A stretch of 64,000 bases of DNA. It comes from a phage. Shown here piece by piece: positions 7,872 to 61,399 of this stretch (position 1 is its first letter; every line of letters starts with the position of its first letter). The stretch lies in sequence record PZ386978.1, one strand, 5' to 3'. The notes below the pieces were generated by a model. That model did not search any database. It saw only the letters and a program-made list of their open reading frames with translations, and had not been told where the DNA came from. A program made the position numbers and the translations under genes.

Positions 7872-8128
7872 TTTTACTCCCTCTAAAATCATTAACCTCA
7901 TACATTACTGCAAAAAATTATAAAAAGCAAGTTGACAATGCACTTGACAAGGTGTTAATCTTTGCGAAGTGGGTTTTTACTTAAAAGGTTACTTAACAGT
8001 TTAACTATACAGATACTTTAAAACTCTTAAAAGATTATTTAATAGCTTTTAAAAAGCTTTAAAGTATAACGTATAGAATACGTTAAGATAAAAGATTAAA
8101 ACTTAATAGTTACTTAAAAGAGGCTTAC

Positions 8129-8551
8129 ATGCAGAAAATGTTTGTTCACCCAGACATAGCTGACTTTGTTAGAGCTTTGCAGAAGTTGGAAGAACTTGAC
8201 ATTGCTGCTCAACGGGAATATGCTCACCATCACAGGAGAATGGTTGATATACAACATGAAATAGAGTTGTCTGAAAACTATGAAGATGACTTAAAATGCT
8301 CTGTATTTGAGCATATGAAAGATGTTGCTACAGCGAGACGTAAAGCTAAAGACACAGTTGCTTTACTAGATTCTCTTAAAAAGAGGTTGCAAAGTGGTAC
8401 AGACCTGTGTAATCTGGCGTCACTGATTAACGATGTTGAAACTTCTTGGGATAGGCACTATTATCCACGCTCTGAAAAGACACTTGACTTTTCTTCATCA
8501 GAAAACTTAAAATGTTCTAGAAAGAAACTTAACCAACTGAGAGAGAAATAA
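8129..8551 (+). CDS. hypothetical protein
   Basis: 140 aa, first gene of plus-strand block after divergent intergenic region. Confidence 0.5.
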   Translation: MQKMFVHPDIADFVRALQKLEELDIAAQREYAHHHRRMVDIQHEIELSENYEDDLKCSVFEHMKDVATARRKAKDTVALLDSLKKRLQSGTDLCNLASLINDVETSWDRHYYPRSEKTLDFSSSENLKCSRKKLNQLREK

Positions 8552-10166: not shown

Positions 10167-10367
10167 ATGAAGATGAGAGTAAAAGACAATTTTAAAGTTA
10201 TTGACCACCGTTTAGTGGAACTCTCATCTCTTTCCAATGAGGTAATGATTGAACGTCTTAAGAGAGTTGAATCACGAAGGAAAGAGATTGCAGATGAAAT
10301 TCATGAACTGGACAAGATTGAAAATGGATTAAAAGCAGAACTACAACGAAGAGGTGCTAATGTCTAA
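10167..10367 (+). CDS. hypothetical small protein
   Basis: 66 aa ORF. Confidence 0.4.
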   Translation: MKMRVKDNFKVIDHRLVELSSLSNEVMIERLKRVESRRKEIADEIHELDKIENGLKAELQRRGANV

Positions 10368-12345
10368 AGGTCGTAAATTGAAAGAGGCTGGTCAGTTTGT
10401 TGGTCATTGTGCATGTCCACGTTGTGGTTCATCAGATGCTGGTTCAATCTATCATCATGACGATGATTCTTATTCGATGACTTGCTTTAGTTGTAACAAA
10501 GGTTTCCCAGAGTGGGATTTTGATAAAGGACAAATCGTGAGCACTTATTCTACTGGTTCAGACAATAAAAACCGTACTTTCCGTGGAATGGATTTAGACG
10601 ATGTGAAAGAAAACCTTGAAGCGATGGACTTGAAAGATAGGAAGATTCCTGCAAAAGTCCTTGAACGCTTAGGTATCAAGGTAGACATTGACAGTGATGG
10701 TGAAATTGATGCGCATTTCTATCCAACTTACAAACGTAATGAAGATGGTAAGCTAGAGCACGTCGGTTACCGTGTACGTCATCGTTATCCAGAAGACCAT
10801 CCAAAAGAACACCTACGAGGTAAGTTAAAAGACTTCTCAGGTGGCGTTGGAGACATTAAAGGTGAACTGGCAATGTTCGGTTCATGGATTGCTCCAGAAG
10901 GTGGTAACCGTCTATTCATCTGGGAAGGTGAGATGGAATGTGCGACAGCAATCTATATGACTTCTCTTGCGATTAAGGACAAGTCTCGTCGTAAGAATTA
11001 CTGTCACGTATCTGTTCCATCAGGTGCAAACATTAAGTCTATCAAAGACAACTATCAGTACATCACATCATTTGATGAGATTTACTTGTGCTTTGATAAC
11101 GATGAAGCAGGTGCTAAAGCTACCAAAGAGGCTGCTGGTATCCTACCTATTGAGAAGGTTCGTTTATTCCAGTATCCAGAGGGTGTAAAAGACCTTAATG
11201 AATGGTGGACAAAGTTCTATAAAGAGAAAGATACAGTTCTGGAAGGATTTAAGCAGCGTATCTACAATGCACCTCGTTACTGTCCTGCTGGTATCAAGAA
11301 CTTCGCAGATGGTTTTGAGGCAATGAAGAATCGTGGTCAGATTCCATTGATTCCTTTCCCAGAATCTTTCGGAGATTTGAACAGACTGACTTATGGTGGT
11401 TATGGTCTAGGTGAGATTACAACTCTGGCAGCACCATCTTCAGTGGGTAAATCAGCATACACTCGTGAAATGATTTACACAGCTTGGAAAGATACCGATT
11501 ACAATATTGGTGTAATTCCTGTAGAAGATACCTATGAAGAGTTGATGGAGATGCTCTGTGCAATCCACCTAAGCAAGCAGATTTCTGAGATTCCTTATGA
11601 CGAACGTGATTGGGATGAATTGAAGGAAGCACACGCAGAACTATCTAAAGGTCGTCGTATCCACATCGTAGACCATCAAGGGGCAATTGACCAAGATAAC
11701 TTGCTGGAGTTTGTTGACTATCTTGTTAATAGTTTAGACTGTAAGATTATTATTCTTGACCCTATTACGTTGGCTCTGTCACGTTCAGATACGGATGAAG
11801 AGGAAGTTTTGTCTGAGCTATTGCGTCGTTGCAAACGCTACCAGTATGCACAGGTAAACGTCTGTCACGTTCGTAAAAGTGCAGGTGGTCAGAAGGCTAA
11901 CTCCGAAGGTGGAGATATCTCTGAAGAGGATATTAAAGGTTCTGGTGCGTATTTCCAGATTTCTATGAACAACATCCTGTTAATGCGTAACAAAGTTGAC
12001 CCAGACCCTGTTAAGAAAAACTTGACAAAAATCAAGCTAACTAAATGTCGTCGTCACGGTAAGTCAACGGGTATTGCTGGTCATACTTGGTACAATCCAG
12101 ATACAGGACGCCTCATCAAAGCATCTGGTTGCGGAGTTGACATTGATGGTGCAGCAGAAAATATTCGCCAACAGTTTGGTATTGGTGAAGCTGAAGACCA
12201 TTACGATGACTCTTTGCCACATTATGAGGATGAAGTATTTGACCGTGAGACTGGTGAAGTCTATACTGAAGAGCAGCGTCAAAGCTCAACGATTCCACCT
12301 GTATTAAGTGAGGATGCAGATGACTGCCCATTCGAAACTGAGTGA
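10354..12345 (+). CDS. bifunctional DNA primase-helicase (T7 gp4-like)
   Basis: N-terminal zinc ribbon CxxC...CxxC (CPRCGSSDAG...CFSCNKGF); C-terminal DnaB-like helicase with Walker A APSSVGKSAY. Confidence 0.85.
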   Translation: MLMSKGRKLKEAGQFVGHCACPRCGSSDAGSIYHHDDDSYSMTCFSCNKGFPEWDFDKGQIVSTYSTGSDNKNRTFRGMDLDDVKENLEAMDLKDRKIPAKVLERLGIKVDIDSDGEIDAHFYPTYKRNEDGKLEHVGYRVRHRYPEDHPKEHLRGKLKDFSGGVGDIKGELAMFGSWIAPEGGNRLFIWEGEMECATAIYMTSLAIKDKSRRKNYCHVSVPSGANIKSIKDNYQYITSFDEIYLCFDNDEAGAKATKEAAGILPIEKVRLFQYPEGVKDLNEWWTKFYKEKDTVLEGFKQRIYNAPRYCPAGIKNFADGFEAMKNRGQIPLIPFPESFGDLNRLTYGGYGLGEITTLAAPSSVGKSAYTREMIYTAWKDTDYNIGVIPVEDTYEELMEMLCAIHLSKQISEIPYDERDWDELKEAHAELSKGRRIHIVDHQGAIDQDNLLEFVDYLVNSLDCKIIILDPITLALSRSDTDEEEVLSELLRRCKRYQYAQVNVCHVRKSAGGQKANSEGGDISEEDIKGSGAYFQISMNNILLMRNKVDPDPVKKNLTKIKLTKCRRHGKSTGIAGHTWYNPDTGRLIKASGCGVDIDGAAENIRQQFGIGEAEDHYDDSLPHYEDEVFDRETGEVYTEEQRQSSTIPPVLSEDADDCPFETE

Positions 12346-41612: not shown

Positions 41613-41702
41613 CACTGGTTTTTAGATAGATTAAATTACACATCAACGGGGAGGTAATAACCTTCCCCACTAAATAAAGTCCTTAAACTAGGAGAGTCTA
41701 AA

Positions 41703-41975
41703 ATGTATACTACTAACAATGGTCGTACTTTAAATGTAACTTTACGTCACTATGTAGACGGTGTAATGCACTTTGAGGATTTACGGGCTGAACAACATAT
41801 CTTAGATTGGCAAGTAGCAGGACTCCAAAAAACTGCTACGGGATATGGTAAAAAGATTCCAACCAGTTGGAAAGTACACTACGAAGGACGTTTGCGCAGA
41901 ATTTATCAAGATGTATGTAGTAATAGCGCAGCAAGTTACATCATAGTAAAAGGTAAAAAACTGCACTTAGTATAA
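41703..41975 (+). CDS. hypothetical protein (array ORF7)
   Basis: 90 aa; type 2 leader upstream. Confidence 0.5.
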   Translation: MYTTNNGRTLNVTLRHYVDGVMHFEDLRAEQHILDWQVAGLQKTATGYGKKIPTSWKVHYEGRLRRIYQDVCSNSAASYIIVKGKKLHLV

Positions 41976-42465: not shown

Positions 42466-42568
42466 AAATTTTATTGACACTGGTTTTTAGATAGATTAAA
42501 TTACACATCAACGGGGAGGTAATAACCTTCCCCACTAAATAAAGTCCTTAAACTAGGAGATTCTAAAA

Positions 42569-42772
42569 ATGGCTATTATTAATGGCTTAACCATTGAAAC
42601 TACACACATCAAAGATATTAAAGTTGGTGATATAGTCCTTTCCCACGGCGTAGAAAAAACTGTCACTGCAAAGGATATCAAAGAGGATTCTTTCATGGGT
42701 AGGACTCTCTTCGGTGATTCTTATTGCTTAGGTTATCTTGCAGTTTTAAAAGTTGTCAAAAATAACAAATAA
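42569..42772 (+). CDS. hypothetical protein (array ORF9)
   Basis: 67 aa; type 2 leader upstream. Confidence 0.5.
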   Translation: MAIINGLTIETTHIKDIKVGDIVLSHGVEKTVTAKDIKEDSFMGRTLFGDSYCLGYLAVLKVVKNNK

Positions 42773-43722: not shown

Positions 43723-43810
43723 ACAAGCCTGATAAAAGTCTGTAAATTGTCAATCAACGGGGGTAACAACCTCCCACTACATAAAACCCTTAAACTAGGA
43801 GATTCAAAAA

Positions 43811-44152
43811 ATGGCTTATGTAACTGTAATTACCAATAAACCGGATTCATCTTGGTCAACTCAAGTAAGCGACAAGATGTCACCTATGCAGTGCCTAAAA
43901 TACTTTGAGCAATGGAATAAAGGCGAGGATGTAAGCCCCTTTCAAATAATGCAGATTATTCATGTAGACAATGAAGGGAAGAAAACGACTCTGAACAGTG
44001 AGTACTATGCAAGCCGCTTCGAAACGAGAAGTAAAGCAATGAAGCTTCTACGTGAATCCGGTTATGCTCATATTGCCGCACTAATCTGGGATGACCTGCT
44101 AAAAAGTCAACGTATCAGCTATGTAAAGCCTGAAAAAATATTCATCAGTTAA
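43811..44152 (+). CDS. hypothetical protein (array ORF12)
   Basis: 113 aa; type 2 leader upstream. Confidence 0.5.
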   Translation: MAYVTVITNKPDSSWSTQVSDKMSPMQCLKYFEQWNKGEDVSPFQIMQIIHVDNEGKKTTLNSEYYASRFETRSKAMKLLRESGYAHIAALIWDDLLKSQRISYVKPEKIFIS

Positions 44153-44213: not shown

Positions 44214-44371
44214 TGTTCGAGGGGGTTTATCTAAAAGGGATTCACTTAAAAGATTCTTTATAGATAAGCTTAAAAAATTGCTTGCAATCAGTTATCAAAA
44301 CAAGTAAATTACTAATCAACGGGAGGGATGACCTCCCCACTAAATAAAATCCTTAAACTAGGAGAGCCAAA

Positions 44372-44902
44372 ATGAACAAGTTTAAAGCTATCAACTTCAT
44401 TCGTTCAAATGCTGTAATGTCAAAACCTGTAAAAGACACATACGAATTTCGCTGCAATGGGGTACACTTTGCAACCATCACTAAGTCAGAAAACGGGGCT
44501 TATTACATTCATCGCCGTAATGTTTCTACTGTTGTAGTCTCTCACTTTATGCAAGCTGTAGCGGAATTATTACCATTATTCTTAGAGATTTATCTAGATG
44601 AGTGTAAAAACGTTCGTAACCACGTTAAAAACCTTTTAAACGGTTATAAAATGGCTTATGAACGTTCTATCAAGTCCTTAAACAAGTTCTATAAAGCCCC
44701 TATGAATACCGTTTCAATGGCTTACAGTGTAAGCGGTGAGTTGGTTAGCCTCTTCGAAGTGGAAGAAATAGAACTGCATGACTTGCGCCCTAGTGGTTAC
44801 TCTAAGACACTGGGAGAAGGCTTATCTTTCAATATCAAGAACTTAGAAAAAACTTTAAAAGATATTGAAAAAGATATTGACGAAACAATCAAAAGTCTGT
44901 AA
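44372..44902 (+). CDS. hypothetical protein (array ORF13)
   Basis: 176 aa; type 2 leader upstream. Confidence 0.5.
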   Translation: MNKFKAINFIRSNAVMSKPVKDTYEFRCNGVHFATITKSENGAYYIHRRNVSTVVVSHFMQAVAELLPLFLEIYLDECKNVRNHVKNLLNGYKMAYERSIKSLNKFYKAPMNTVSMAYSVSGELVSLFEVEEIELHDLRPSGYSKTLGEGLSFNIKNLEKTLKDIEKDIDETIKSL

Positions 44903-44968
44903 ATTGTTAATCAACGGGGAGGGAATGAACTTCCCCACTAAGTAAAGTCCTAAACTGGAGTTATCAAG

Positions 44969-45232
44969 ATGGAAAACGTAGAGTTAACCACACTTTTACA
45001 AATCGCAACCGACAAAGAAAACGTAGCATTATTACACCGCATTGAAAGCGATTTGTTCAATGGTGAAATCATCAAAGAGTCTTATGAAGTTGTTGGATTC
45101 AAAGATGGTAAAGCATTTGGATTCTTTGACCTCGACAAAGGCAACGCGGTTACAAAATATGATGTTTTATCTTGTGAGATTCTTACAAAATACAACGAAA
45201 AAAGGCTTGCAACTTACGACAACATGCAGTAA
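44969..45232 (+). CDS. hypothetical protein (array ORF14)
   Basis: 87 aa; type 2 leader upstream. Confidence 0.5.
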   Translation: MENVELTTLLQIATDKENVALLHRIESDLFNGEIIKESYEVVGFKDGKAFGFFDLDKGNAVTKYDVLSCEILTKYNEKRLATYDNMQ

Positions 45233-45311
45233 ATTACTAATCAACGGGGAGGGAATGAACTTCCCCACTAAACAAAACCCTTAATCAACTTCCTAAACTG
45301 GAGATTCTAAA

Positions 45312-45560
45312 ATGGCTACTATCCGCGCAACTGTTAACGAATTCGGCTTCTACTCTCTGGACGTTAAATTTGACCTTGTAGGTACTGATAACGCCTTTGA
45401 AATGGTGAAAGGCCTTATCATCCAGACCATCAGCGATTACAACCCCTCTGATGAATTCTGGAAAGAAACAAAAGAGGAAGTTCTCAAAGAGGGTTACACT
45501 TATCACTATTGGGGTGAAAAAATTGTATCCCTGTACTACGACAAAAAAGGCACTAACTAA
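45312..45560 (+). CDS. hypothetical protein (array ORF15)
   Basis: 82 aa; leader CCTAAACTGGAGATTCTAAAATG upstream; last gene of the plus-strand block. Confidence 0.5.
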   Translation: MATIRATVNEFGFYSLDVKFDLVGTDNAFEMVKGLIIQTISDYNPSDEFWKETKEEVLKEGYTYHYWGEKIVSLYYDKKGTN

Positions 45561-45598
45561 ACGCCGCAACGGGGCTAAATAGCCCCAGATACCTTTAC

Positions 45599-45620
45599 AG
45601 CCCCTTAAATGGGGCTTTTT
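45599..45620 (+). terminator. intrinsic terminator closing the plus-strand block
   Basis: GCCCCTTAAATGGGGC followed by TTTTTT. Confidence 0.6.
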
Positions 45621-47298
45621 TACGTCTATCAAATTCCTTTCCAGAATCTTAAAACCCACCTAACAAGTCAGAACTTTACCAGACCTTAAAAAGCAATAAC
45701 TCTATAGTCTACTCTATAGCCTTTTATCAAATCAACTGATTGGCATTGTTACCAATCCCTTAAATATAAGCCCATAACCCGAAAGGGAAGGGCAACCACT
45801 AAAATGCTCTATAAAGCTCTATAACAGCCTTATCAACCTAACTTAAGCAATCATATTAACCCACTCTAAAAAGCCCTTCCTAGAGCTTCCCAGAGCCTTA
45901 AAAGAATCTTATAAGGGGTGTAAGCTTTATCATCTCGTTAGTATTCTTGTGAACTACTATAAAGGGCTATGAGATAGGACTCTATGAGGGTAATTCATTA
46001 CCTGAATCACTATCGAATCCTATTGTTATTGTCTTAAAAGTATGTTATAGGGGCTTAAAAGTAGCTTAAAAGTTACGTAAAAGAGGCTATAAAGTTACGT
46101 AAATGCTAGCCCCCTTAACATTTTCTTAACAATTTCTTAACAAACCCTACATAGTTATGCTTGTTAGAGACTTGTTAGCCCCTTGTTAAATCTCTGTTAA
46201 GACCACGTAAAAGCCTTGTAAGAGTCTTTGGCATAGCCTTAAAAGCCACTGTAAAGCCCTATAAAGAGCTATCCATACAGTTGAGGGGTAAATACTAGGA
46301 AGATGCTTAAAAGAGCCTATAAAGAGTTATAGAGAGCTTTTAAGAGGTATGTTTAAGGAATCACTAAGAAAGGAAAGGGAACGATAAGAAAAGAGTAGTG
46401 ACCATGTTAATAGCTTGTTAAAAAGATTAAGCACTTGTTAGGAACTTGTTAATTATCTTAACAAAATAACTCTTTAAAATTAACTTGTTAGCTCTTGTTA
46501 GCCATCTGTTAAGCATCTGTAAAGACTATTCAGCACTTGTTAAGAATCTGTTACAACCTTGTTAGTTCTGTTAAGAAACTGTTAAGACCTTTGAAGAGAT
46601 GTTAAGAAGATGTTATGACTGTTAAGAGATTGTTAAGGATATTTTAAAATTTTGCAAAGGGGGTGTTAAGGGGCTGTTAAGGGCTACCAAGCAGATATAC
46701 ATCCTAATCAGATATTTTCAGTTCCTTCAAAGACCCTAAAAAATGACTTGATAGTCCTATTTTATAAAAATTTTAAAATTCTGGATAATTACCTAGACAG
46801 TCTTTTAAAATACAGGCAGAAACAGGCTTATAAGATACCTTGTTAGTACCGTGTTAGACCTTGTGAGATAAGGTCTGTAAAGATATTCCTGTTAAGTTTG
46901 TTAAAACAGTCTATATAGAGGCTTAGTAATACCTAGTGAACACCTATAGAGGGTATCATAGCTGACATAGAGATTAAGAGGTGTATAGGGGCTTCTAAGA
47001 GTGTGTAGAGAGATGGTTAAGGTGATTGTATAGGCTGTTAAGAAGGCTTGTTAGAAGAGTGTTTAGAAGGTTTGTTAGAGGGCTAGTTAGAAGGGTTATA
47101 CAGAGGGGCTATTAAGACCACTAGATAATTACTAAGATACTATATAGTACTATATAACTATATAGAGAGTAAGATTAAGAAGGTTGTTAAGAAGGGTAGA
47201 TATTTTATTCACATATGATGGTGACCCAGAGGTTGGGACAACCGATAAAATTTTATAAAAATTAAAAAGCCCCCAATTAAGGAGGCTCTTAAGATATT
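45621..47298. repeat. 1.7 kb ORF-free region densely populated with short YTGTTAR / CTATAAAG-type repeats
   Basis: No ORF of 60 aa or more on either strand in the supplied track; ~18 YTGTTAR copies at 46380-46680, more at 46130-46215 (both orientations) and 47030-47200; lies between convergent gene blocks. Confidence 0.65.
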
Positions 47299-47904
47299 TT
47301 AAATCAGTGTTTCCAGAACTGTTTTTAATGATGACTTGGTTGTCTGATAAAAATGAGTGAATCCGTTGTTGTTATCAAATATCTGCATCATAACAGCATC
47401 TCCCTTGATTGGGTACACTCGGATATCATAGTGAAACCCATTAAAGACAGCAGAACCGTTACAGAACACACTAAAATCATCCACTGAGATATACTCTTCA
47501 TGCCCTGTGATTTTTATACAGACACCTTTGCTCGGTCTCTTAGGGTTGATATCTTCCATCACAGACATATTCTGTCCACCAAGAGATACCATAGTGACCA
47601 CTTTACGGTTCTTCTGTTTAAAGTACATTTTAACTTTCTGTAAAGTGTCTTCATAGAACGGATAAGACTTCTCTACAAAGATTCCTTCTAATGGCTCTTT
47701 ACCATTTTCAACTTCTCTGTTATGCCGTACTGCAAAGATAATTTGTTCGAACCAGTCAAGATTTTCTTCGGAGAGTGCTTCTCGAACATCACTCCAGTCA
47801 AGTACTAGGTAGTTACCTTCAACTTCTTTTAAGTTATCTTTTTCCATAGCTGTCACACCATTATCGTAAAACTTGGTAGTCTGGTACTGCAAACTTGTTG
47901 TCAT
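47299..47904 (-). CDS. hypothetical protein
   Basis: 201 aa; first (3'-most) gene of minus-strand block. Confidence 0.5.
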   Translation of the reverse strand: MTTSLQYQTTKFYDNGVTAMEKDNLKEVEGNYLVLDWSDVREALSEENLDWFEQIIFAVRHNREVENGKEPLEGIFVEKSYPFYEDTLQKVKMYFKQKNRKVVTMVSLGGQNMSVMEDINPKRPSKGVCIKITGHEEYISVDDFSVFCNGSAVFNGFHYDIRVYPIKGDAVMMQIFDNNNGFTHFYQTTKSSLKTVLETLI

Positions 47905-48325
47905 TGTTTTTAATGAGGTCTTCTTCTGTTACTAAGAATGTAAGACCACACAAGTGTGTATAGCGGCTATCATACTCAAATATTTTAAGTAAGTATTTAC
48001 CATCATGATAGACAGATTCTACTACACCTTTTGCAACAATCTTTCCAGTCTTGAAGTCTTTAAGACGGTATACATTACCAACTTTAGGGACTGTTTTCAC
48101 TTCAGGTTCTTTTAGCTTCTCACCAGCTTCTACATCCCCTAGTAAGTGAGAACTTTCAAACGCTACATATTGCATATAAGCTTCTGAGCATTCCCAGATA
48201 AAACAGTGTACAAGAACCTTAGCAGCATGTCTTGAGCAATTCAACTTATCACAAATCTCTTTGTACATTTCATCTTTAGTTGAGTTGTCAAGCATTGCTT
48301 TTTGGACTACTTCTTTAATTTTCAT
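47861..48325 (-). CDS. hypothetical protein
   Basis: 154 aa ORF. Confidence 0.45.
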   Translation of the reverse strand: MKIKEVVQKAMLDNSTKDEMYKEICDKLNCSRHAAKVLVHCFIWECSEAYMQYVAFESSHLLGDVEAGEKLKEPEVKTVPKVGNVYRLKDFKTGKIVAKGVVESVYHDGKYLLKIFEYDSRYTHLCGLTFLVTEEDLIKNNDNKFAVPDYQVLR

Positions 48326-52473: not shown

Positions 52474-52938
52474 TTACTTTGGGTATACACTGTCAAGATA
52501 AATGTCAGCTTCCATTCTACGTCTGTTTTTCAGGCCGTTTGAAGTGACCCTCTTACCTTTGACTGTAACCTTGTTCCACCACTGCATAGCTTCTGCACAA
52601 CCTACCTTGTCACCAGCATTATGTCGCTTGATAAATGTAGAATCCTGCATAGCTGTGATACCGATGTTGTATGTTTCACTTACAAGTGCATCAAACTCGT
52701 TCTGAGAAGTTGGAACCTTGATGGCTTTGTTCACTGCTGCAACGAACTTTTCAACATCTTCGAGAAGATACTGTTCAGCTTGTTCAGCGGTAATCTTCAT
52801 ACCCATCTTAACAGGTTTACCAGAAATACGGATTGTTCCGTACCCAATTGTAGGGATTCCAGCAGAATCTTCGTAAGCCTCTAGCTTAAGACCTTCAAAG
52901 AACTTAATAGCCTCTAAACCTTTCTGTGAGAGTTGCAT
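52474..52938 (-). CDS. endolysin, glycoside hydrolase family 24 (T4-lysozyme-like)
   Basis: N-terminal EGLKLEAYEDSAGIPTIGYG catalytic E...D...T signature. Confidence 0.8.
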   Translation of the reverse strand: MQLSQKGLEAIKFFEGLKLEAYEDSAGIPTIGYGTIRISGKPVKMGMKITAEQAEQYLLEDVEKFVAAVNKAIKVPTSQNEFDALVSETYNIGITAMQDSTFIKRHNAGDKVGCAEAMQWWNKVTVKGKRVTSNGLKNRRRMEADIYLDSVYPK

Positions 52939-54323
52939 TATGCCTCCCCTGCTGGGTTAACTGTAACTGTTGCCGCATTAGATGTTACAGAGCCACCTGC
53001 GCCAGTAACTACACAGGTGTAGCTTCCTGCATCAGCAGTGGTTGCACCTTCTTTGGTGTAAGTTGCAGTAGTTGCATCAAGGATGTCTTCCTCACCTTTC
53101 TTCCACTGGTAACCTGTCGCACCTGTTGCCACAACATTCAGTGTTAAGGTCTCACCTTCAGTGATTTCTTGATTGGTTGGCTGTTGAGTGATTACCGGAA
53201 GTGCATTCACAGTAACTGTTGCTGCATTAGATGTGACTGTTGTGCCACCTGCACCAGTAACTACACAAGTGTATGAACCAGCATCGGCAGGAGCTACACT
53301 AGCTTTCGTGTAAGTCGCACCAGTTGCACTAGGGATGTTTACATTGTCCTTTTTCCATTGGTAACCTTCTGCGCCTGTAGCCTCAACACTCAGTGTCAAA
53401 GAGCTACCATCATTAACTACCTGATTGGTTGGCTGCTTGGTAATAACTGGTAAAGCATTTACCGTGACAGTTGCAGGGCTAGAAGTAACAGAACCACCTG
53501 CACCTGTTACGACGCAAGTGTATGAACCTGCATCTGCTGGCAGAGCACCAGACTTGCTATAGGTAGCCCCTGTAGCCGAAGGAATGTCAGAGCCATCTTT
53601 CTTCCACTGGTAACCCGTTGCACCCGTTGCAGTCACTTCCAAGCTGATGTTTCCACCCTCATTGATGGTCTGGCTAGAAGGTTGCTGTGTAATCACAGGT
53701 AGTGCGTTAACAGTAACTGTTGCCGCATCTGAGGTAACACTTGTCCCAGCCTCTCCAGATACAACACAAGTGTATGAACCAGCATCAGAAGGTGCTACAG
53801 ACTGTTTTGTGTAGGTTGCAGATGTGGCGCTAGTGATATCCTCACCATCCTTTTTCCATTGATATCCAGTGGCATTAGTTGCAATAATGCTTAGGGTAAG
53901 TGTACCACCTTCATTTACTGTTTGATTGGTTGGTTGCTGAGTAATTGATGGTGGCTTGATAGCATCCTTCAACTTAGCGTTCAACATTGAGAACGGCTTA
54001 ACCCTTGCCAACCATTCACAATAAATTGTATCAACGTCTTTACCATTGATAATTGCATATTGTAAGTCCATGAAGAAGTCAGAAGTTCTCATTTGAGCAC
54101 CGATGCTGTAAAGCAACTCATCACTAAATGGAACTTTGTAGTCTGGTTTGTAGTCAAACTCCTCAACTTCTGCAATATCAGCTTCAGGCCAATACGAACT
54201 GTAGGTAAGTGGTAAAATAGCCTCTTGATATGTTCTAAAATCATATCTCTTACCAGCTTTTACGTTTGCAATGAAGCCCTTCACAAACTCTTTGAAGTCT
54301 GGGTAAGTCTTTGCTTTAATCAT
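52938..54323 (-). CDS. protein with four tandem Ig-like domains
   Basis: 461 aa; four ~90 aa repeats each with GATGYQWKKDG...SATGATY...ADAGSYTCVV; N-terminal ~110 aa paralogous to 54320..54691. Confidence 0.6.
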   Translation of the reverse strand: MIKAKTYPDFKEFVKGFIANVKAGKRYDFRTYQEAILPLTYSSYWPEADIAEVEEFDYKPDYKVPFSDELLYSIGAQMRTSDFFMDLQYAIINGKDVDTIYCEWLARVKPFSMLNAKLKDAIKPPSITQQPTNQTVNEGGTLTLSIIATNATGYQWKKDGEDITSATSATYTKQSVAPSDAGSYTCVVSGEAGTSVTSDAATVTVNALPVITQQPSSQTINEGGNISLEVTATGATGYQWKKDGSDIPSATGATYSKSGALPADAGSYTCVVTGAGGSVTSSPATVTVNALPVITKQPTNQVVNDGSSLTLSVEATGAEGYQWKKDNVNIPSATGATYTKASVAPADAGSYTCVVTGAGGTTVTSNAATVTVNALPVITQQPTNQEITEGETLTLNVVATGATGYQWKKGEEDILDATTATYTKEGATTADAGSYTCVVTGAGGSVTSNAATVTVNPAGEA

Positions 54324-56402: not shown

Positions 56403-57818
56403 ATGAGCGAATTATTTAAACATGCGCACCTTCATGCAGGTCGAACTGAAAATGTTGCTGTAAACCATACTTCATCAATGTCTGCTCTTGTAGACTTTTA
56501 CAAAGCTGCTGGTTCAAGCCGTAGCAATGTAGAAATCTTACCAGACCTGTTCTACAAAGCTTTGCGTGAGGATGTTGATGTTGCAGTTCGTATTTTACTG
56601 CATATGCGAGATGTACGAGAAGGTATGGGTGAGCGTAAAGCCTTCAGAACTGTTTTACTTCAAGCAATCGAAGACAAAGTTTTAGAGCCTACACAGGTTC
56701 TTCGCATTATGGATAAGATTGCAGAACTTGGTCGTTTTGATGACTTCAAAATCTTCGTAGGTACTCGTTTCGAGACAGATGCCTTCAAACATTTAGAAGC
56801 AGCATTACTAGACCCTGCAACAGCAGGTTTGGCAGCTAAGTGGTTACCACGAGTCAAACCACGTCATAAACAGTTTGTAAAACGTTTCTGCAAGTTTGCC
56901 AACTTGAGTGAGAAAGAGTACCGTACACTGTTGTCTGCACTATCTGATACAGTTGAGCAAAAAATCTCTGCTAATGAGTTTGGTAAGATTGATTACAGTA
57001 AGATTCCTTCACTTGCTGCTGCACGTTACCAAAAACTGTTTAACCGTAAAGATGGAGAACGCTACAAAGCTTACATTGAGTCTTTATCAAAGGGTGAGGC
57101 TAAGATTAATGCTGGTGCTGTTTACCCATACGATGTGATTAAATCTGTCAAGCATGGTAATGCAGATGTTGCTAATGAGCAGTGGAAAGCACTACCAAAC
57201 TGGATGGCAGAGGGTGAAAACATCTTATGTATGACTGATGTTTCAAGCTCAATGTCTTGGGTGAATTTTGGTTCAATCACTGCTCTTGATATTGGCGTAT
57301 CACTTGCCTTGTATGTAGCAGAACACAATACAGGTTGCTTTAAGGATGAGTTGATGGTTTATTCAACAAACCCTCACTTCATTGAACTGAGTGGTGATTT
57401 ACGAAACCGTCATCGTCAGGTGATGCGATACGTTGAATATGGCTCAACTAACTTACAAGCAGCTTTTGAACGCATTCTTGAGATAGGTAAGAGAAACAAC
57501 TTGACTCAGAAAGATATGCCAAGTAAGCTTATCATCTTCTCCGATATGGAGTTCAATCAGGTTGATGGAGCTAACGGTCGTACAAACTTTGAAGCAATTC
57601 AGAGTAAGTACAAGAAAGCTGGATACGAAATGCCACAACTGGTATTCTGGTACTTAGCAAACCGTAATGGTACTTGCGAAGTATCTGTTAAGGATAACGG
57701 TGTAGCAATGGTATCTGGTTTCTCTCCAGCCACTTTAAAAGCTCTGCTTGGTGGTGAGAAGTTTGACCCAATCAGCGTAATGCTCAAAGCAGTAATGATT
57801 GACCGTTATATCTGGTAA
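56403..57818 (+). CDS. vWA-domain protein (MIDAS DxSxS), possibly Ro60/TROVE-like
   Basis: 471 aa; MIDAS-like CMTDVSSSM in C-terminal half; helical N-terminal half; TROVE assignment is a guess. Confidence 0.45.
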   Translation: MSELFKHAHLHAGRTENVAVNHTSSMSALVDFYKAAGSSRSNVEILPDLFYKALREDVDVAVRILLHMRDVREGMGERKAFRTVLLQAIEDKVLEPTQVLRIMDKIAELGRFDDFKIFVGTRFETDAFKHLEAALLDPATAGLAAKWLPRVKPRHKQFVKRFCKFANLSEKEYRTLLSALSDTVEQKISANEFGKIDYSKIPSLAAARYQKLFNRKDGERYKAYIESLSKGEAKINAGAVYPYDVIKSVKHGNADVANEQWKALPNWMAEGENILCMTDVSSSMSWVNFGSITALDIGVSLALYVAEHNTGCFKDELMVYSTNPHFIELSGDLRNRHRQVMRYVEYGSTNLQAAFERILEIGKRNNLTQKDMPSKLIIFSDMEFNQVDGANGRTNFEAIQSKYKKAGYEMPQLVFWYLANRNGTCEVSVKDNGVAMVSGFSPATLKALLGGEKFDPISVMLKAVMIDRYIW

Positions 57819-57983: not shown

Positions 57984-58057
57984 CTCTGTTTAGCTCAGCT
58001 TGGTAGAGCGTTCCGTTTGGGGCGGTAAGGCCGGAGGTTCAAGTCCTCCAACAGAGA
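57984..58057 (+). tRNA. tRNA-Pro (anticodon UGG)
   Basis: Acceptor CTCTGTT/AACAGAG, D-arm GCTC..GAGC, anticodon loop TTTGGGG, T-arm GGAGGTTCAAGTCCTCC, CCA encoded. Confidence 0.7.
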
Positions 58058-58067
58058 CCAAATTAAT

Positions 58068-58142
58068 GTTCCAGTAGACAAAATGGTATAGTCACCACTC
58101 TTTCAAAGTGGATATTTGAGGGTTCAAATCCCTTCTGGAACG
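58068..58142 (+). tRNA. tRNA-Glu (anticodon UUC)
   Basis: Acceptor GTTCCAG/CTGGAAC, anticodon stem CCACT/AGTGG with loop CTTTCAA, T-loop TTCAAAT, CCA encoded. Confidence 0.7.
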
Positions 58143-58152
58143 CCAGTTTTGA

Positions 58153-58226
58153 CAGAAGACCAATTACAGCAAACTTAATCTTATTCATCTGAAGGTAAAT
58201 CGGACAAAGAAGAGATTTGGTCTGGT
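58153..58226 (+). ncRNA. conserved stem-closed element, copy 1
   Basis: CAGAAGACCAATTACAGCAA...ATTTGGTCTGG; stem AGACCAA/TTGGTCT. Confidence 0.4.
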
Positions 58227-58237
58227 CATTAAGAATT

Positions 58238-58310
58238 GCGGGTATAGAGAAAGGGCGTCTCACATGTCTCATTAGCATGGTATCGGCAGGTTCGACTCCT
58301 GCACCCGCCT
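58238..58310 (+). tRNA. tRNA-Met family (anticodon CAU; initiator, elongator or Ile-lysidine undetermined)
   Basis: D-stem GAGA/TCTC, anticodon stem CATGT/GCATG with loop CTCATTA, T-arm GCAGGTTCGACTCCTGC; acceptor boundary ambiguous by 1 nt. Confidence 0.6.
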
Positions 58311-58317
58311 CCAAATT

Positions 58318-58384
58318 TACAGAAGACCGTTTACAGCAATATTTATTAAATTTTTAGCGGAAAAATTGAAAGATACGGTCTGGT
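58318..58384 (+). ncRNA. conserved stem-closed element, copy 2
   Basis: CAGAAGACCGTTTACAGCAA...ATACGGTCTGG; stem AGACCGT/ACGGTCT (compensatory to copy 1). Confidence 0.4.
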
Positions 58385-58396
58385 AATACTAAACAT

Positions 58397-58470
58397 GGTT
58401 AGGAAGCACATAAGGTATGTGCGGTCGCCTGTTAAGCGAATGGCACAGGGTTCGAATCCCTGACTAACCG
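58397..58470 (+). tRNA. tRNA-Asn (anticodon GUU)
   Basis: Acceptor GGTTAGG/ACTAACC, D-stem GCAC/GTGC, anticodon loop CTGTTAA, T-arm CAGGGTTCGAATCCCTG, CCA encoded. Confidence 0.7.
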
Positions 58471-58542
58471 CCAAATTTAGGAGAGAAGCGATTGCTCACC
58501 GATTTGTAAGGTGCAAGTCCTTAGCCTGAATAGAAATTAAAT

Positions 58543-58627
58543 GTGTCGTTATCCCGTAGATGGTAGCGGTGGGGACTGTAAATCCCTTGTCATTGAGACT
58601 CGGTAGGTTCGACTCCTACACGGCACA
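58543..58627 (+). tRNA. tRNA-Tyr (anticodon GUA), long variable arm
   Basis: 85 nt; acceptor GTGTCGT/ACGGCAC, anticodon loop CTGTAAA, long variable arm, T-arm GTAGGTTCGACTCCTAC, CCA encoded. Confidence 0.65.
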
Positions 58628-58635
58628 CCAATAAA

Positions 58636-58710
58636 GGTTATGTAGTTTAATTTGGTTAAAATACTCCCCTGTCACGGGAGATGATGAGGGTTCAAATCCA
58701 TTCGTAACCG
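58636..58710 (+). tRNA. tRNA-Asp (anticodon GUC)
   Basis: Acceptor GGTTATG/CGTAACC, anticodon stem CTCCC/GGGAG with loop CTGTCAC, T-loop TTCAAAT, CCA encoded. Confidence 0.65.
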
Positions 58711-58773
58711 CCAATTTTGAGAGGGCTATTTAGCCCCTCCCTTAAAGAGTTCTTACGAGTATTCTTTAAAGGA

Positions 58774-58849
58774 GCAGAAGACCAAATACAGCAAGTTACT
58801 TAAAATTTCAAGCCAATTTAATTTTGAAAAATTTAAAACTTGGTCTGGC
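58774..58849 (+). ncRNA. conserved stem-closed element, copy 3
   Basis: CAGAAGACCAAATACAGCAA...CTTGGTCTGG; stem AGACCAA/TTGGTCT. Confidence 0.4.
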
Positions 58850-58860
58850 TCAACAAATTT

Positions 58861-58993
58861 ACAGAAGACCGTTTACAGCAAAACTTAAACAATCTATTTC
58901 TCGGTAAAGAAAAGGCGAAGGTTCGATTCCTTCACTCGGCAGATGTCGAGTTGGTGTAATGGTAGCACTTAAGATGATAAACAACGGTCTGGT
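58861..58993 (+). ncRNA. conserved stem-closed element, copy 4, with an embedded permuted tRNA-like segment
   Basis: CAGAAGACCGTTTACAGCAA...AACGGTCTGG; interior has T-arm GAAGGTTCGATTCCTTC + ACTCGGC directly followed by GTCGAGT + D-arm-like GGTGTAATGGTAGCAC. Confidence 0.4.
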
Positions 58994-59136
58994 AATTATC
59001 TTTGTAGATAAGTTATTAAGCTTACCTGTGAGTATGCGACCACAAAGGGTGAAGGGTAAATTCTAGATTTAAACCCAAAAAGGCACATCGCTACAGACCT
59101 TAAGCAAGTCTGGGTAGCTTATCTACAAAGATAATT
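58994..59136 (+). repeat. 19 bp perfect inverted repeat enclosing ~105 nt
   Basis: AATTATCTTTGTAGATAAG at 58994-59012 and its exact reverse complement CTTATCTACAAAGATAATT at 59118-59136. Confidence 0.6.
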
Positions 59137-59140
59137 TAAT

Positions 59141-59213
59141 GGAAGTGTAGCAGAATGGTGATGCGGCAGACTTTTAATCTGACAGGCGATGGGTTCGAAT
59201 CCCTCCACTTCTA
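59141..59213 (+). tRNA. tRNA-Lys (anticodon UUU)
   Basis: Acceptor GGAAGTG/CACTTCT, anticodon loop CTTTTAA, T-loop TTCGAAT, CCA encoded; paralogue of tRNA at 60730. Confidence 0.6.
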
Positions 59214-59220
59214 CCAATAT

Positions 59221-59294
59221 GGTTCAGTCGCAGATAAGGTAATGCAAGGGTCTCATAAGCCCTATGAATGTGGGTTCGATTCCCATCTGAACCT
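59221..59294 (+). tRNA. tRNA-Met family, second copy (anticodon CAU)
   Basis: Acceptor GGTTCAG/CTGAACC, anticodon stem AGGGT/GCCCT with loop CTCATAA, T-loop TTCGATT, CCA encoded. Confidence 0.65.
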
Positions 59295-59298
59295 CCAA

Positions 59299-59371
59299 GC
59301 TGGTATAGTTAAGAAGGTTATAACACTCCCCTGATAAGGGAACATCGGTGGTTCGATTCCACCTACCAGTA
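59299..59371 (+). tRNA. tRNA-Ile (anticodon GAU)
   Basis: Acceptor GCTGGTA/TACCAGT, D-stem GTTA/TAAC, anticodon loop CTGATAA, T-arm GGTGGTTCGATTCCACC, CCA encoded. Confidence 0.7.
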
Positions 59372-59389
59372 CCAATTTCAATAAAGTTG

Positions 59390-59418
59390 TTGACATTGAG
59401 ATGTGACTACTTTATAGT
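59390..59418 (+). promoter_or_regulatory. sigma70-like promoter inside tRNA cluster
   Basis: TTGACA 59390-59395, 17 nt spacer, TATAGT 59413-59418. Confidence 0.55.
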
Positions 59419-59622
59419 AACCTTAGTTTTCGTTGCGTAGCGTCTATTTTGCAAATTTAAAATAAATGCAAACGACAATGTTTTTCTGGCAGTAGCTTGA
59501 TAGGCTAAACACCAGTGAGGTCTTCCAATCCCTCATCAAAGAATTTGGCGTACTAGCCCACGGTATGATTAATAAGGTGGGCATCTTTAAGGGCTTTCTA
59601 AGAGAGTCTTTAAAGATAATTA

Positions 59623-59701
59623 CGGGGCGTATCTCAGCTGTCTTCTAAACAGCCGTTAATCGAGTAAGTGGAGTATGCGGGTTCGAGTCCTGCCGCCTCG
59701 A
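59623..59701 (+). ncRNA. atypical tRNA-like gene (acceptor + T-arm + anticodon-like hairpin with loop CTTCTAA; no recognisable D-arm)
   Basis: Acceptor CGGGGCG/CGCCTCG, T-arm GCGGGTTCGAGTCCTGC, hairpin GCTGT-CTTCTAA-ACAGC (would read UCU, Arg), 22 nt extra segment, CCA encoded. Confidence 0.4.
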
Positions 59702-59718
59702 CCAATTTTGGAGAAATC

Positions 59719-60066
59719 ATGAAAACTTGTATTAGGTGCAAACTCAGCAAGGATGAAAATGATTTCTACATGAAAGATGGTAGGAGAACTCATTCATACT
59801 GTAAAAAGTGTGTTAATGAGCAAACCATAGAAAGACAAAGAGCACTTAAACTCTCAGCTATTGAGTACAAAGGTGGGGTTTGTCACGATTGTGGTAAAAA
59901 GTATCATCCAGCAGTGTATGACTTCCATCATTTGAATCCTTCAGATAAAGATTTTAACATTGGTCATAGGAAAAGCCTTAAGTTCTCTCAAGAACTAAAA
60001 GATGAACTTGACAAATGTGTTTTGCTATGTTCAAATTGCCATAGGGTAAGACATGCAAAGTATTAG
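59719..60066 (+). CDS. HNH endonuclease within tRNA cluster
   Basis: Start at MKTCIRCK with GGAG SD (track start 59668 overlaps the upstream tRNA-like gene); zinc-finger cysteines and HNH core DFHHLNP...CSNCHRVRH. Confidence 0.7.
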   Translation: MKTCIRCKLSKDENDFYMKDGRRTHSYCKKCVNEQTIERQRALKLSAIEYKGGVCHDCGKKYHPAVYDFHHLNPSDKDFNIGHRKSLKFSQELKDELDKCVLLCSNCHRVRHAKY

Positions 60067-60203
60067 TTAGCAGATTACTTAGACGACCTTAGCGGGTCTC
60101 CGTGTAGGGAGGTGGTCTGTATCTCATGTTTTCCAGAACATGTAAATAATCTGAGAAGGGGCTTTACAGTGTTGAGATAATACGGTAAGCTTCGAATTAT
60201 AGT

Positions 60204-60283
60204 GTGGGACGATGTTAAGACTCTAAGGCATGAGCAACGGCCTCCAAAACCGTTTCAAAGGGGTTCAACTCCTCCGTCCCATG
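60204..60283 (+). tRNA. tRNA-Trp (anticodon CCA), 5' boundary uncertain
   Basis: Anticodon loop CTCCAAA, T-loop TTCAACT, acceptor GTGGGAC/GTCCCAT, CCA encoded; D-region longer than canonical. Confidence 0.5.
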
Positions 60284-60299
60284 CCAAAGTCTTATTAGG

Positions 60300-60387
60300 G
60301 GTAGGTAGCGGCTAATGGCAGCCAAACAGTCTTGAAAACTGTTGCCACTGTAGAGATACGGTGAGGGTTCGACTCCTTTACTTACCG
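60300..60387 (+). tRNA. tRNA-Ser (anticodon UGA), long variable arm
   Basis: 88 nt; acceptor GGTAGGT/ACTTACC, anticodon stem ACAGT/ACTGT with loop CTTGAAA, long variable arm, T-loop TTCGACT. Confidence 0.65.
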
Positions 60388-60644
60388 CCTAATAAGATTT
60401 AAAGCCAAGCTTCATTCGGATGTTGCTTTGGTATCACTCGTGTATTGTCGTACACACTGATAAAACACTTAGTAGGTGTCACGGAGAAGAGATAATATCA
60501 AGCTCTCCAAAGGTTCTAGTCACCGGATTAAACAAGACTATGCAAAGACCTTTTTAGGTCTTTTTAGAGGGCTTCTAAGGTTATTACAGCTTGTTGTGGA
60601 ACCTTGTTGCTTAGGTTCTTAGAAGTTCTCTAAAAAGATTTAAT

Positions 60645-60719
60645 GGGAGATTGATGGTAATTGGTAAACCTATCTCGCTTAGAACGAGATGTTTGAGGGT
60701 TCGAATCCCTTGTCTCCTA
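60645..60719 (+). tRNA. tRNA with anticodon UAG (Leu by anticodon) but short variable arm
   Basis: Anticodon stem TCTCG/CGAGA with loop CTTAGAA, T-arm GAGGGTTCGAATCCCTT, acceptor GGGAGAT/GTCTCCT, CCA encoded; 5 nt variable loop. Confidence 0.5.
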
Positions 60720-60729
60720 CCAAATTAAT

Positions 60730-60802
60730 GCAGGTGTAGCAAAATGGTTATGCGGCTGACTCTTAATCAGTAAGACGATGGGTTCAATTCCCTCCACCTG
60801 TA
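60730..60802 (+). tRNA. tRNA-Lys (anticodon CUU)
   Basis: Acceptor GCAGGTG/CACCTGT, anticodon loop CTCTTAA, T-loop TTCAATT, CCA encoded. Confidence 0.6.
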
Positions 60803-60811
60803 CCAGACATT

Positions 60812-60884
60812 GGGGTCATAGTTTATATGGTTAAAATTCGAGTTTTGCAAACTTGGGAACTGAGTTCAATTCTCAGTGACTCCA
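60812..60884 (+). tRNA. tRNA-Ala (anticodon UGC)
   Basis: Acceptor GGGGTCA/TGACTCC, anticodon loop TTTGCAA, T-arm CTGAGTTCAATTCTCAG, CCA encoded. Confidence 0.65.
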
Positions 60885-60893
60885 CCAATTAGT

Positions 60894-60965
60894 GCATCCA
60901 TAGTTTAAACGGGAAAATTACAGTCTTCCAAACTGAGGTTGAGGGTTCGATTCCCTCTGGATGCT
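60894..60965 (+). tRNA. tRNA-Gly (anticodon UCC)
   Basis: Acceptor GCATCCA/TGGATGC, anticodon loop CTTCCAA, T-arm GAGGGTTCGATTCCCTC, CCA encoded. Confidence 0.7.
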
Positions 60966-60975
60966 CCAAATTAAT

Positions 60976-61048
60976 GCTCCTATCGTATAATCGGCTATTA
61001 CGGTTGCCTTGTAAGCAACTTATCAGGGTTCGAATCCTTGTGGGAGCA
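60976..61048 (+). tRNA. tRNA-Thr (anticodon UGU)
   Basis: Acceptor GCTCCTA/TGGGAGC, anticodon stem GTTGC/GCAAC with loop CTTGTAA, T-loop TTCGAAT, CCA encoded. Confidence 0.7.
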
Positions 61049-61054
61049 CCAATT

Positions 61055-61143
61055 CAGAGGTCAAGTGAAAGACCGCTGGTGTCAACTGAAGACCGTAACA
61101 AATTCCACGGAGTTGAGTTAGCGGCACAACTTCAGACCTCTTT
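61055..61143 (+). ncRNA. large hairpin element between tRNAs
   Basis: Outer stem CAGAGGTC / GACCTCTT enclosing ~75 nt that contains CTGAAGACCGTAACAA (related to the CAGAAGACC elements) and inner stem TGAAG/CTTCA. Confidence 0.35.
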
Positions 61144-61146
61144 CAT

Positions 61147-61218
61147 ACTCGCTTAGTTTATATGGTAAAACATCACCCTTACAAGATGAAGAAAAAGGTT
61201 CAAGTCCTTTAGTGAGTA
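61147..61218 (+). tRNA. tRNA-Val (anticodon UAC)
   Basis: Acceptor ACTCGCT/AGTGAGT, D-stem GTTT/AAAC, anticodon loop CTTACAA, T-arm AAAGGTTCAAGTCCTTT, CCA encoded. Confidence 0.65.
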
Positions 61219-61222
61219 CCAT

Positions 61223-61297
61223 GTTCCAGTATCCCAATTGGCAGAGGATGCAAGCTCAAACCTTGTATTAGTGACGGTTCGAATCCGTCTTGGAACA
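61223..61297 (+). tRNA. tRNA with anticodon CAA (Leu by anticodon) but short variable arm
   Basis: Acceptor GTTCCAG/TTGGAAC, anticodon stem GCAAG/CTTGT with loop CTCAAAC, T-arm GACGGTTCGAATCCGTC, 75 nt, CCA encoded. Confidence 0.5.
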
Positions 61298-61305
61298 CCA
61301 ATTTT

Positions 61306-61378
61306 GCAGGATTAGTTCAAATGGATAGAGCAACAGTCTACGAAACTGTTAATAGGGGTTCGAATCCCTTATCCTGCG
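61306..61378 (+). tRNA. tRNA-Arg (anticodon ACG)
   Basis: Acceptor GCAGGAT/ATCCTGC, anticodon stem ACAGT/ACTGT with loop CTACGAA, T-loop TTCGAAT, CCA encoded. Confidence 0.7.
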
Positions 61379-61399
61379 CCAGATAAGCAAGAGGAATTT

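Follow-up and report, generated by a model that had tools for sequence, protein, structure and literature searches.

Phased short-motif arrays in and around the terminal repeat at a probable concatemer junction of a Felixounavirus genome

The R sites of lambda cosB, the hexamer clusters of P1 pac and the pacL and pacR sites of SPP1 are recognition sites of small terminases, in which clusters of short repeated motifs lie beside the cut and presumably wrap around an oligomer of the recognition protein. In T7 and T3, arrays of short repeats flank the terminal repeat and were reportedly named SRL and SRR by Dunn and Studier in 1983. Reading the T7 ends directly, we found a 160-bp repeat that contains three CCTAAAG units; after it come 12 (C/A)NTAAAG units, mostly 13 bp apart. 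The units (at least 12) occupy nt 18-340 and further copies precede the right repeat. The T7 junction is named as the packaging substrate in a passage of PMC13236587 that cites Chung and Hinkle (1990). Here, we analysed a gene-free region of about 1.7 kb, at positions 45621-47298 of a 64,000-nucleotide stretch of phage DNA (record PZ386978.1, hereafter the window), in which motifs with a TGTTA core are repeated many times. This region is very probably a concatemer junction carrying a direct terminal repeat (DTR), at which the two ends of a linear chromosome were joined in the assembly. The T7 concatemer junction appears to be its closest analogue, as a parallel case and not as a class of which it would be a member.

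The window is a Felixounavirus (Felix O1-like) genome. With positions 45500-47400 as query, 257 phage records matched the region, essentially all of them Felix O1-like myoviruses of the genera Felixounavirus, Mooglevirus and Suspvirus, and the identity to Felix O1 was 91%. For this genus, publications or annotations already give the terminal repeat and its position. The 608-bp repeat of UAB_Phi87 was established by time-limited Bal31 digestion and run-off sequencing, which showed the chromosome ends (PMC4837284), and in the UAB_Phi87 sequence the distance from edge to edge is 614 bp. The 581-bp DTR of Pr103Blw was obtained by PhageTerm (PMC8303462), and both ends of its record carry it as an annotated short direct terminal repeat; CRP22 has a 579-bp repeat at both record ends; in both cases the two copies are 100% identical. 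Together with the annotated DTR of UAB_69, these repeats are homologous in sequence, share the same edges and occupy the same place, with the early-gene run on one side and the leftward gene run on the other, and their reports give only the existence and the length of the repeat. Furthermore, the Felix O1-type terminase falls in a DTR cluster (PMC4837284).

Aligned to the window, the repeats of Pr103Blw and CRP22 gave identical edges, so that the DTR of the relatives maps from end to end to 46109-46688 (580 bp), present here in one copy. The left edge lies between AAATGCTA and GCCCCCTTAACA and the right edge between TGTTAAGGGCTACC and AAGCAGATATACA; the annotations differ by ± 2 nt, that of UAB_69 being 2 nt wider on each side. 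The records of H12, I14.1, CRP22, Pr103Blw and NBEco004 begin or end at window position 46109, the H12 record agreeing with the edge by its start, and the record of pEP20 opens, in reverse orientation, at 46688. DTR sizes among Felixounavirus range from 579 to 618 bp. A 544-bp end duplication in MET-P1-301 falls slightly inside the consensus edges, and we treated it as an assembly-trimmed copy rather than as a separate terminus.

In the junction, then, the terminal repeat (46109-46688) separates right-end unique DNA (45561-46108) from left-end unique DNA (46689-47298). A prediction made earlier from the sequence alone (the original prediction) had placed the end of the plus-strand genes at 45560 and that of the minus-strand genes at 47299, which we confirmed. 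It had described the region as a convergent junction, without seeing in it the join of two chromosome ends: the genes apparently converge because both runs head toward the ends of the chromosome. Among the functions it listed, a terminus or packaging site fits the DTR lying inside the region, whereas a replication origin, a partition site and a nucleoid-protein sink gained no support, since neither an initiator nor a Par gene lies next to the region and DnaA and IHF sites are not in excess.

Motif counts were compared with 1000 dinucleotide-preserving shuffles. The plus strand of the region contains 33 TGTTA cores against 3.1 ± 1.7 in the shuffles (maximum 9; z 17.5), and the rest of the window has about 2.3 such cores in a stretch of the same length. 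The extended form YTGTTAR was found 24 times (1.1 expected) and the CTNTAAAG/CTTAAAAG/CGTAAAAG family 16 times (0.7 expected), with z values of 17-21 across motifs; the roughly 30 motif copies first reported therefore stand up to the enrichment check. The orientation is strongly one-sided. The reversed core TAACA is present only six times, three of them at 46116, 46127 and 46138, within three CTTAACA units at 46114-46143 that constitute the main exception. Successive TGTTA cores are separated by exactly 11 bp in 13 of 32 gaps, and the distances between pairs cluster at 11, 20-22, 31-33, 42, 51-53 and 62-64 bp, i.e. at multiples of about 10.5 bp. A Fourier peak at 10.3-10.4 bp exceeds the 99th percentile of position permutations. 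Therefore, the TGTTA cores keep to one face of the helix across hundreds of bp.

We aligned the junctions of 13 genomes (ten Felixounavirus, two Mooglevirus and one Suspvirus). Between the window and the Mooglevirus and Suspvirus genomes, the junction showed 79-83% identity in aligned columns, or 69-72% with gaps counted, compared with 53-74% nucleotide and 42-65% protein identity for the two flanking genes. The junction is, then, better conserved across the three genera than the genes beside it. Conservation was higher at the TGTTA core positions (0.89-0.93) than in the neighbouring spacers (0.74-0.82), and the same was seen in the three distant genomes (0.80-0.87 versus 0.62-0.74). Both edges of the DTR lie within blocks that are invariant in the 13 genomes, and relatives often differ by whole units of 11, 12, 22 or 24 bp. 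The Erwinia phage phiEa21-4 (Kolesnikvirus) is absent from the megablast matches, yet it has a syntenic gap of 1.4 kb, with 20 TGTTA (2 expected) and 12 GTTAAGA (0.1 expected). In this gap the right-edge sequence AAGCAGATATACA is identical and a related left edge, TTAGCCACTTTTACATTTCGTTAACAACTTTTTAACA, lies about 439 bp from it, and the second motif family has the form CTTCTAA(A/G) in place of CTTAAAAG. A cis element with an unchanged TGTTAAG in four genera argues for recognition by a conserved phage protein. A scan of IMG/VR with the conserved right-edge pattern returned 9 loci only and gave no evidence of a wider distribution.

Considering their location, their phasing, their footprint-like conservation and the analogy with T7, we infer that the arrays probably are binding sites for a machinery that recognises the junction, cuts at both edges and duplicates the repeat. 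The phage would package DNA of unit length that bears short exact direct terminal repeats. In the replicating concatemer, one 580-bp repeat would stand between right-end and left-end unique DNA, and the gene runs coming from both sides would halt at terminators just outside the repeat. The TGTTAAG-type motifs, inside and to the right of the repeat, and the CTNTAAAG-type motifs, to its left, would offer binding sites on a single face of the DNA, and their binder could be the terminase or a separate recognition partner within the packaging or end-processing machinery. The array, once bound by protein, may wrap or stiffen the DNA and set the cuts at the two conserved edge sequences, after which the repeat would be duplicated via strand-displacement synthesis, as in the T7 model. 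At the right edge GGGCTA mirrors the TAGCCC of the left edge, but a reading of this inverted repeat as a pair of symmetric nicks is only suggestive.

The resemblance to T7 lies in a non-coding region with a short exact repeat, which has one-orientation arrays of a short unit (in T7, a 7-8-mer that ends in TAAAG) both within it and on its flanks; this arrangement of a terminal repeat between one-orientation arrays of short direct repeats was found here. The details differ. The T7 units are 13 bp apart and not helically phased, whereas the units here are spaced by 11 bp and have a period of 10.4 bp; the present repeat is 3.6 times longer, is itself filled with units and involves two motif families. 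CCTAAAG units and a 13-bp spacing are not found here, and promoters point out of the T7 left end, while here genes run toward both ends. The sequence ATCTGTTAC at 46546-46554 is identical to the right-edge sequence of the T7 terminal repeat (T7 nt 161-169), which we take to be the core of the class II pause site of T7 RNA polymerase; the identity is probably a coincidence because CTGTTA is the repeat unit here. Felix O1 is reported to lack a phage RNA polymerase (PMC3185647), and therefore the polymerase pause step of T7 cannot apply. As for the cosB and pac sites, short repeated motifs adjoin the cut here too, the arrays abutting both mapped edges. In contrast to those sites, the junction has far more copies, about 40-70 units over 1.7 kb, it has two fixed cuts 580 bp apart instead of one cos or pac cut, and no small terminase gene is recognisable.

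Several points weigh against this assignment of the region and of its arrays. The window holds a single copy of the repeat, so the termini of this very phage are placed by homology. We identified no protein that binds the arrays, and the window does not include the terminase gene. In phiEa21-4, none of the three genes that lie upstream of its large terminase matched a small-terminase family, and the literature on Felix O1 and UAB_Phi87 reports no small terminase. The TAGCCC/GGGCTA inverted repeat is short, and the mapped cuts are off the mirror positions by 4 nt. The arrays reach 400-500 bp past the repeat on both sides, beyond what a minimal cut site would need. To our knowledge, the role of the flanking arrays is not established even in T7, so that the analogy would support the same kind of place more than a known mechanism.

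The alternative that stands up best, although unlikely, is that the arrays act at the chromosome ends in a role other than packaging, such as the protection or synapsis of the termini after injection, the annealing of repeats to form concatemers, or DNA organisation. A conserved, helically phased array would fit these roles too, and the extension of the arrays well past the repeat on both sides, unneeded for a cut site alone, speaks in their favour. Nothing specific points to them, however, and the tight association of the array ends with the two mapped cuts fits end formation better.

A replication origin or priming zone at the ends also seems rather improbable. The phased repeats would then be initiator iterons, or a transcript across the G-rich, C-poor 46800-47200 would provide an R-loop primer beside the AT-rich 46740-46815. 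The direct repeats, phased and accompanied by an invariant AT-rich block, are of the kind this would require, and they share with iterons and with R1 parC a spacing of one helical turn, which suits cooperative binding to a single side of the DNA. Strand asymmetry is strong, with a GC skew of -0.25 that flips near 46150 to +0.45 and reaches +0.455 in the C-poor plus strand of 46800-47200, and one DnaA-box-like TTATTCACA occurs at 47205 in a conserved block. Nevertheless, no initiator-like gene lies alongside: the ten flanking proteins belong to no Pfam family and match PHROGs of unknown function only. DnaA-like and IHF-like consensus sites (one each) are not above chance, nor are promoter-like matches (12 sigma-70 matches versus 11.4 expected). 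Of the features of an iteron-type origin, namely an initiator gene, boxes for DnaA or host factors and an unwinding element, no Rep-like domain was found in the flanking proteins and the boxes stay at chance level, although an AT-rich conserved block is present. Unlike in iterons and R1 parC, no initiator or partition gene adjoins the array, host-factor sites are not in excess and the array falls at mapped chromosome ends. The convergence of genes on the region is what a terminus, rather than an origin, would show, and the replication genes are about 35-40 kb off, beside a divergent gene switch at 7.9-8.1 kb. This switch, at 7901-8129, separates DNA polymerase A (5172-7901, minus strand) from a long plus-strand run that includes the primase-helicase (10354-12345). 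Judged by gene orientation, 7901-8129 would be a more natural candidate for an internal origin than the junction.

It is very unlikely that the arrays are functionless products of slippage, i.e. simple-sequence-like repeats tolerated in the non-coding ends of the chromosome. Close relatives do differ by whole-unit changes in copy number (11, 12, 22 and 24 bp), and small palindromic inserts appear and vanish, which shows that indels are tolerated. Against this, the region outdoes its flanking genes in conservation across genera, the TGTTA cores are more conserved than the spacers, the 10.4-bp phase is kept over a long range, and the motif persists in phiEa21-4, in a genus without alignable DNA.

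Small genes without annotation, or a non-coding RNA, are still less probable; conserved small genes or a known non-coding RNA had been set beforehand as findings that would refute the original prediction, and neither was found in the relatives or in Rfam. From 45561 to 47298 there is no conserved ORF and no Rfam RNA. As stated earlier, 45621-47298 contains no ORF of at least 60 aa, and the only ORFs of at least 30 aa inside it are 46327-46434 (minus strand, 35 aa) and 46748-46846 (plus strand, 32 aa); 45285-45659 (minus strand), which overlaps the region by 39 nt, is a spurious antisense ORF. Several GenBank records annotate ORFs of 25-53 aa here, but both of the window ORFs are broken by frameshifts or stops in relatives. 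The claim that such an ORF-free state is unusual holds only in part: no ORF of at least 60 aa was seen in 31% of composition-matched shuffles and is not rare alone, whereas a longest ORF of only 35 aa was seen in none of 1000. Stop triplets are enriched (291 against 241), and this excess, like the very short ORFs, arises because the repeated motifs contain TAA or TAG. For an RNA, the minus strand of 46815-47264 folds somewhat better than shuffles (z -2.5), but the plus strand of this conserved left-end block does not (z -0.8), and no convincing structure emerged from either; folding of the repeat as single-stranded DNA gave a z of -1.6. In 46800-47200 the C-poor plus strand, and hence a G-poor minus-strand transcript, limits G-C pairing on either strand. 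A tRNA scan found none in the region, and Rfam searched over 45000-48000 at E up to 1 gave nothing usable, the single match at E ≤ 0.2 being a sub-threshold leader match on the terminator (26 bits versus a gathering score of 55). A plasmid-like partition centromere of the parC/parS type is exceedingly improbable: the 11-bp phased direct repeats resemble the iterons of R1 parC, but the phage is virulent, and the NTPase and adaptor genes expected beside such a site were not detected, the ten flanking proteins including no ParM-, ParR-, ParA- or ParB-like product by Pfam and PHROGs.

Returning to the arrays as sites for junction recognition and cutting, it is possible, and we propose it tentatively, that a packaging-recognition factor of a new type assembles on the phased TGTTAAG array, which is conserved together with both cut sites in at least four Ounavirinae genera. 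If so, the array would be a handle to find this factor, as pull-down bait or as a transduction signal, and could help to explain the T7-style junction arrays. The motif architecture appears to be undescribed: the genome paper of Felix O1 is silent on the gap and on its motifs, and the literature that could be searched yielded no account of the phased TGTTAAG/CTNTAAAG arrays, the conserved edge sequences or the conservation across genera. For this phage group, the alignment places the true ends of the chromosome at about window positions 46109 and 46688; many GenBank records were opened elsewhere or carry spurious small ORFs across the junction. It also defines the minimal DNA likely needed for packageable or transducible constructs of Felix O1-type phages, which are widely used in Salmonella typing, biocontrol and therapy. 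With the junction there are now two examples of a terminal repeat set among short-motif arrays; this second one evolved independently and is much richer, and its phasing and phylogenetic footprints allow a direct test of the hypothesis that a protein binds there.

Terminator-like hairpins stand on both sides of the junction. On the left, an intrinsic terminator on the plus strand (45599-45624; hairpin 45599-45616, AGCCCC-TTAAAT-GGGGCT, then a T-run) closes the early-gene run, its stem and T-run being kept in the 13 genomes, and on the right a conserved intrinsic terminator on the minus strand (47265-47290) closes the minus-strand run. The right-end unique non-coding DNA (45625-46108) contains CTNTAAAG/CTTAAAAG-type units that were gained or lost by 11-bp steps among relatives. 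The CTNTAAAG family predominates to the left of the DTR, and its best-phased stretch (46033-46106) advances by 11 bp through 46054, 46065, 46076, 46087 and 46098.

The DTR (46109-46688), which corresponds to the duplicated or annotated ends of relatives, carries just inside its left edge the three CTTAACA units (46114-46143, minus strand, 11-bp spacing), i.e. reversed TGTTAAG. These units are nearly invariant in the 13 genomes and can still be recognised in phiEa21-4, and they make up an inverted pair of arrays together with four forward units at 46160-46201 (plus strand; CTTGTTAG, CTTGTTAG, CTTGTTAA and CTGTTAAG), also spaced by 11 bp, among which one 11-bp unit has been gained or lost between relatives. 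Next inside the DTR comes the second motif family, at 46204-46345 (plus strand; CGTAAAAG, CTTGTAAG, CTTAAAAG, CTGTAAAG, CTATAAAG, CTTAAAAG and CTATAAAG), with steps of 10-11 bp within clusters. A purine-rich spacer starting with GGAATCACTAAGAAAGGAAAGGGAACGATAAG (46350-46402, plus strand) separates the two halves of the DTR. Beyond it, a dense plus-strand array at 46403-46683 contains 18 forward TGTTA cores (YTGTTAR) and one reversed at 46459, with 9-11 bp spacing and a period of 10.3 bp, and reaches the right DTR edge. The right-edge block (46675-46705), in which TGTTAAGGGCTACC is followed across the edge by AAGCAGATATACATC, is invariant in the 13 genomes, and AAGCAGATATACA is also present in phiEa21-4.

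On the other side of this edge, the left-end unique non-coding DNA starts with an AT-rich conserved block (46689-46836) that holds the invariant CTATTTTATAAAAATTTTA; its invariant AT-rich part is 46740-46815, and its sigma-70-like matches are not above chance. An array outside the DTR at 46837-46906 (plus strand; CTTGTTAG, CGTGTTAG, CTTGTGAG, CTGTAAAG, CTGTTAAG and TTGTTAAA) is almost invariant within the genus. A G-rich, C-poor array with a 12-bp period lies at 47030-47118 (plus strand; GCTGTTAAG, GCTTGTTAG, GTGTTTAG, TTTGTTAG, CTAGTTAG and GCTATTAAG; GC skew +0.45), and its copy number differs by 12 or 24 bp among relatives. Three conserved units of the ACTATATAG type (TATATAG) lie at 47138-47166. 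In the same left-end unique DNA, ATTTTATAAAAAT is found twice, at 46764-46776 and 47250-47262, both copies being invariant in the 13 genomes, and resembles the core of a putative late promoter of the TATAAATA type.

The right-end unique DNA also contains a conserved hairpin, GCCCATAACCCGAAAGGGAAGGGC, at 45783-45806, whose variant CCAATAACCCCAGAAAGGGGATGG in H12, CRP22 and SUSP2 still pairs, and two variable palindromic inserts, at 45733-45758 and 45968-46019. The first is a palindrome of about 22-24 bp, AATTGGTATTGTTACCAATCC, with a position that differs among relatives: its equivalents fall at window ~46485 (L003, L018 and L016) and ~45797 (L013 and L016), and the terminal repeat itself contains it in UAB_69, UAB_Phi87 and SUSP2. 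This palindrome has the appearance of a small mobile insert. The second belongs to a GATTCGATAGAATCTATC-like family that is variably present, with relatives having it at window-equivalent 45609, 45676 and 46703 and with CRP22, BPS15Q2 and SUSP2 having it in the terminator loop; the window copy holds an extra nested hairpin insert.

Among the early genes that lead up to the junction, a repeated unit of about 75 nt stands before at least six (41632-41705, 42497-42574, 43742-43815, 44304-44372, 44899-44967 and 45229-45284). It comprises a GGGGAGG...CCTTCCCC hairpin, then CCTTAAACTAGGAGAT, then the start codon. The unit probably serves these genes as a common 5' leader or regulatory cassette, akin to the 57-bp and 39-bp repeats of the Felix O1 paper. 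In the GenBank record GU169904.1 (Staphylococcus phage SA1), positions 135296-137171 match the enterobacterial Felix O1-type junction at 86.7%, and this record is likely chimeric or contaminated. Elsewhere in the window, an ORF of the DUF2828/DUF7788 (Ro60/TROVE-like) type (56403-57818) is located directly upstream of a cluster of 18 tRNA genes (57984-61381), and 52938-54323 (minus strand) encodes a four-repeat immunoglobulin-domain protein.

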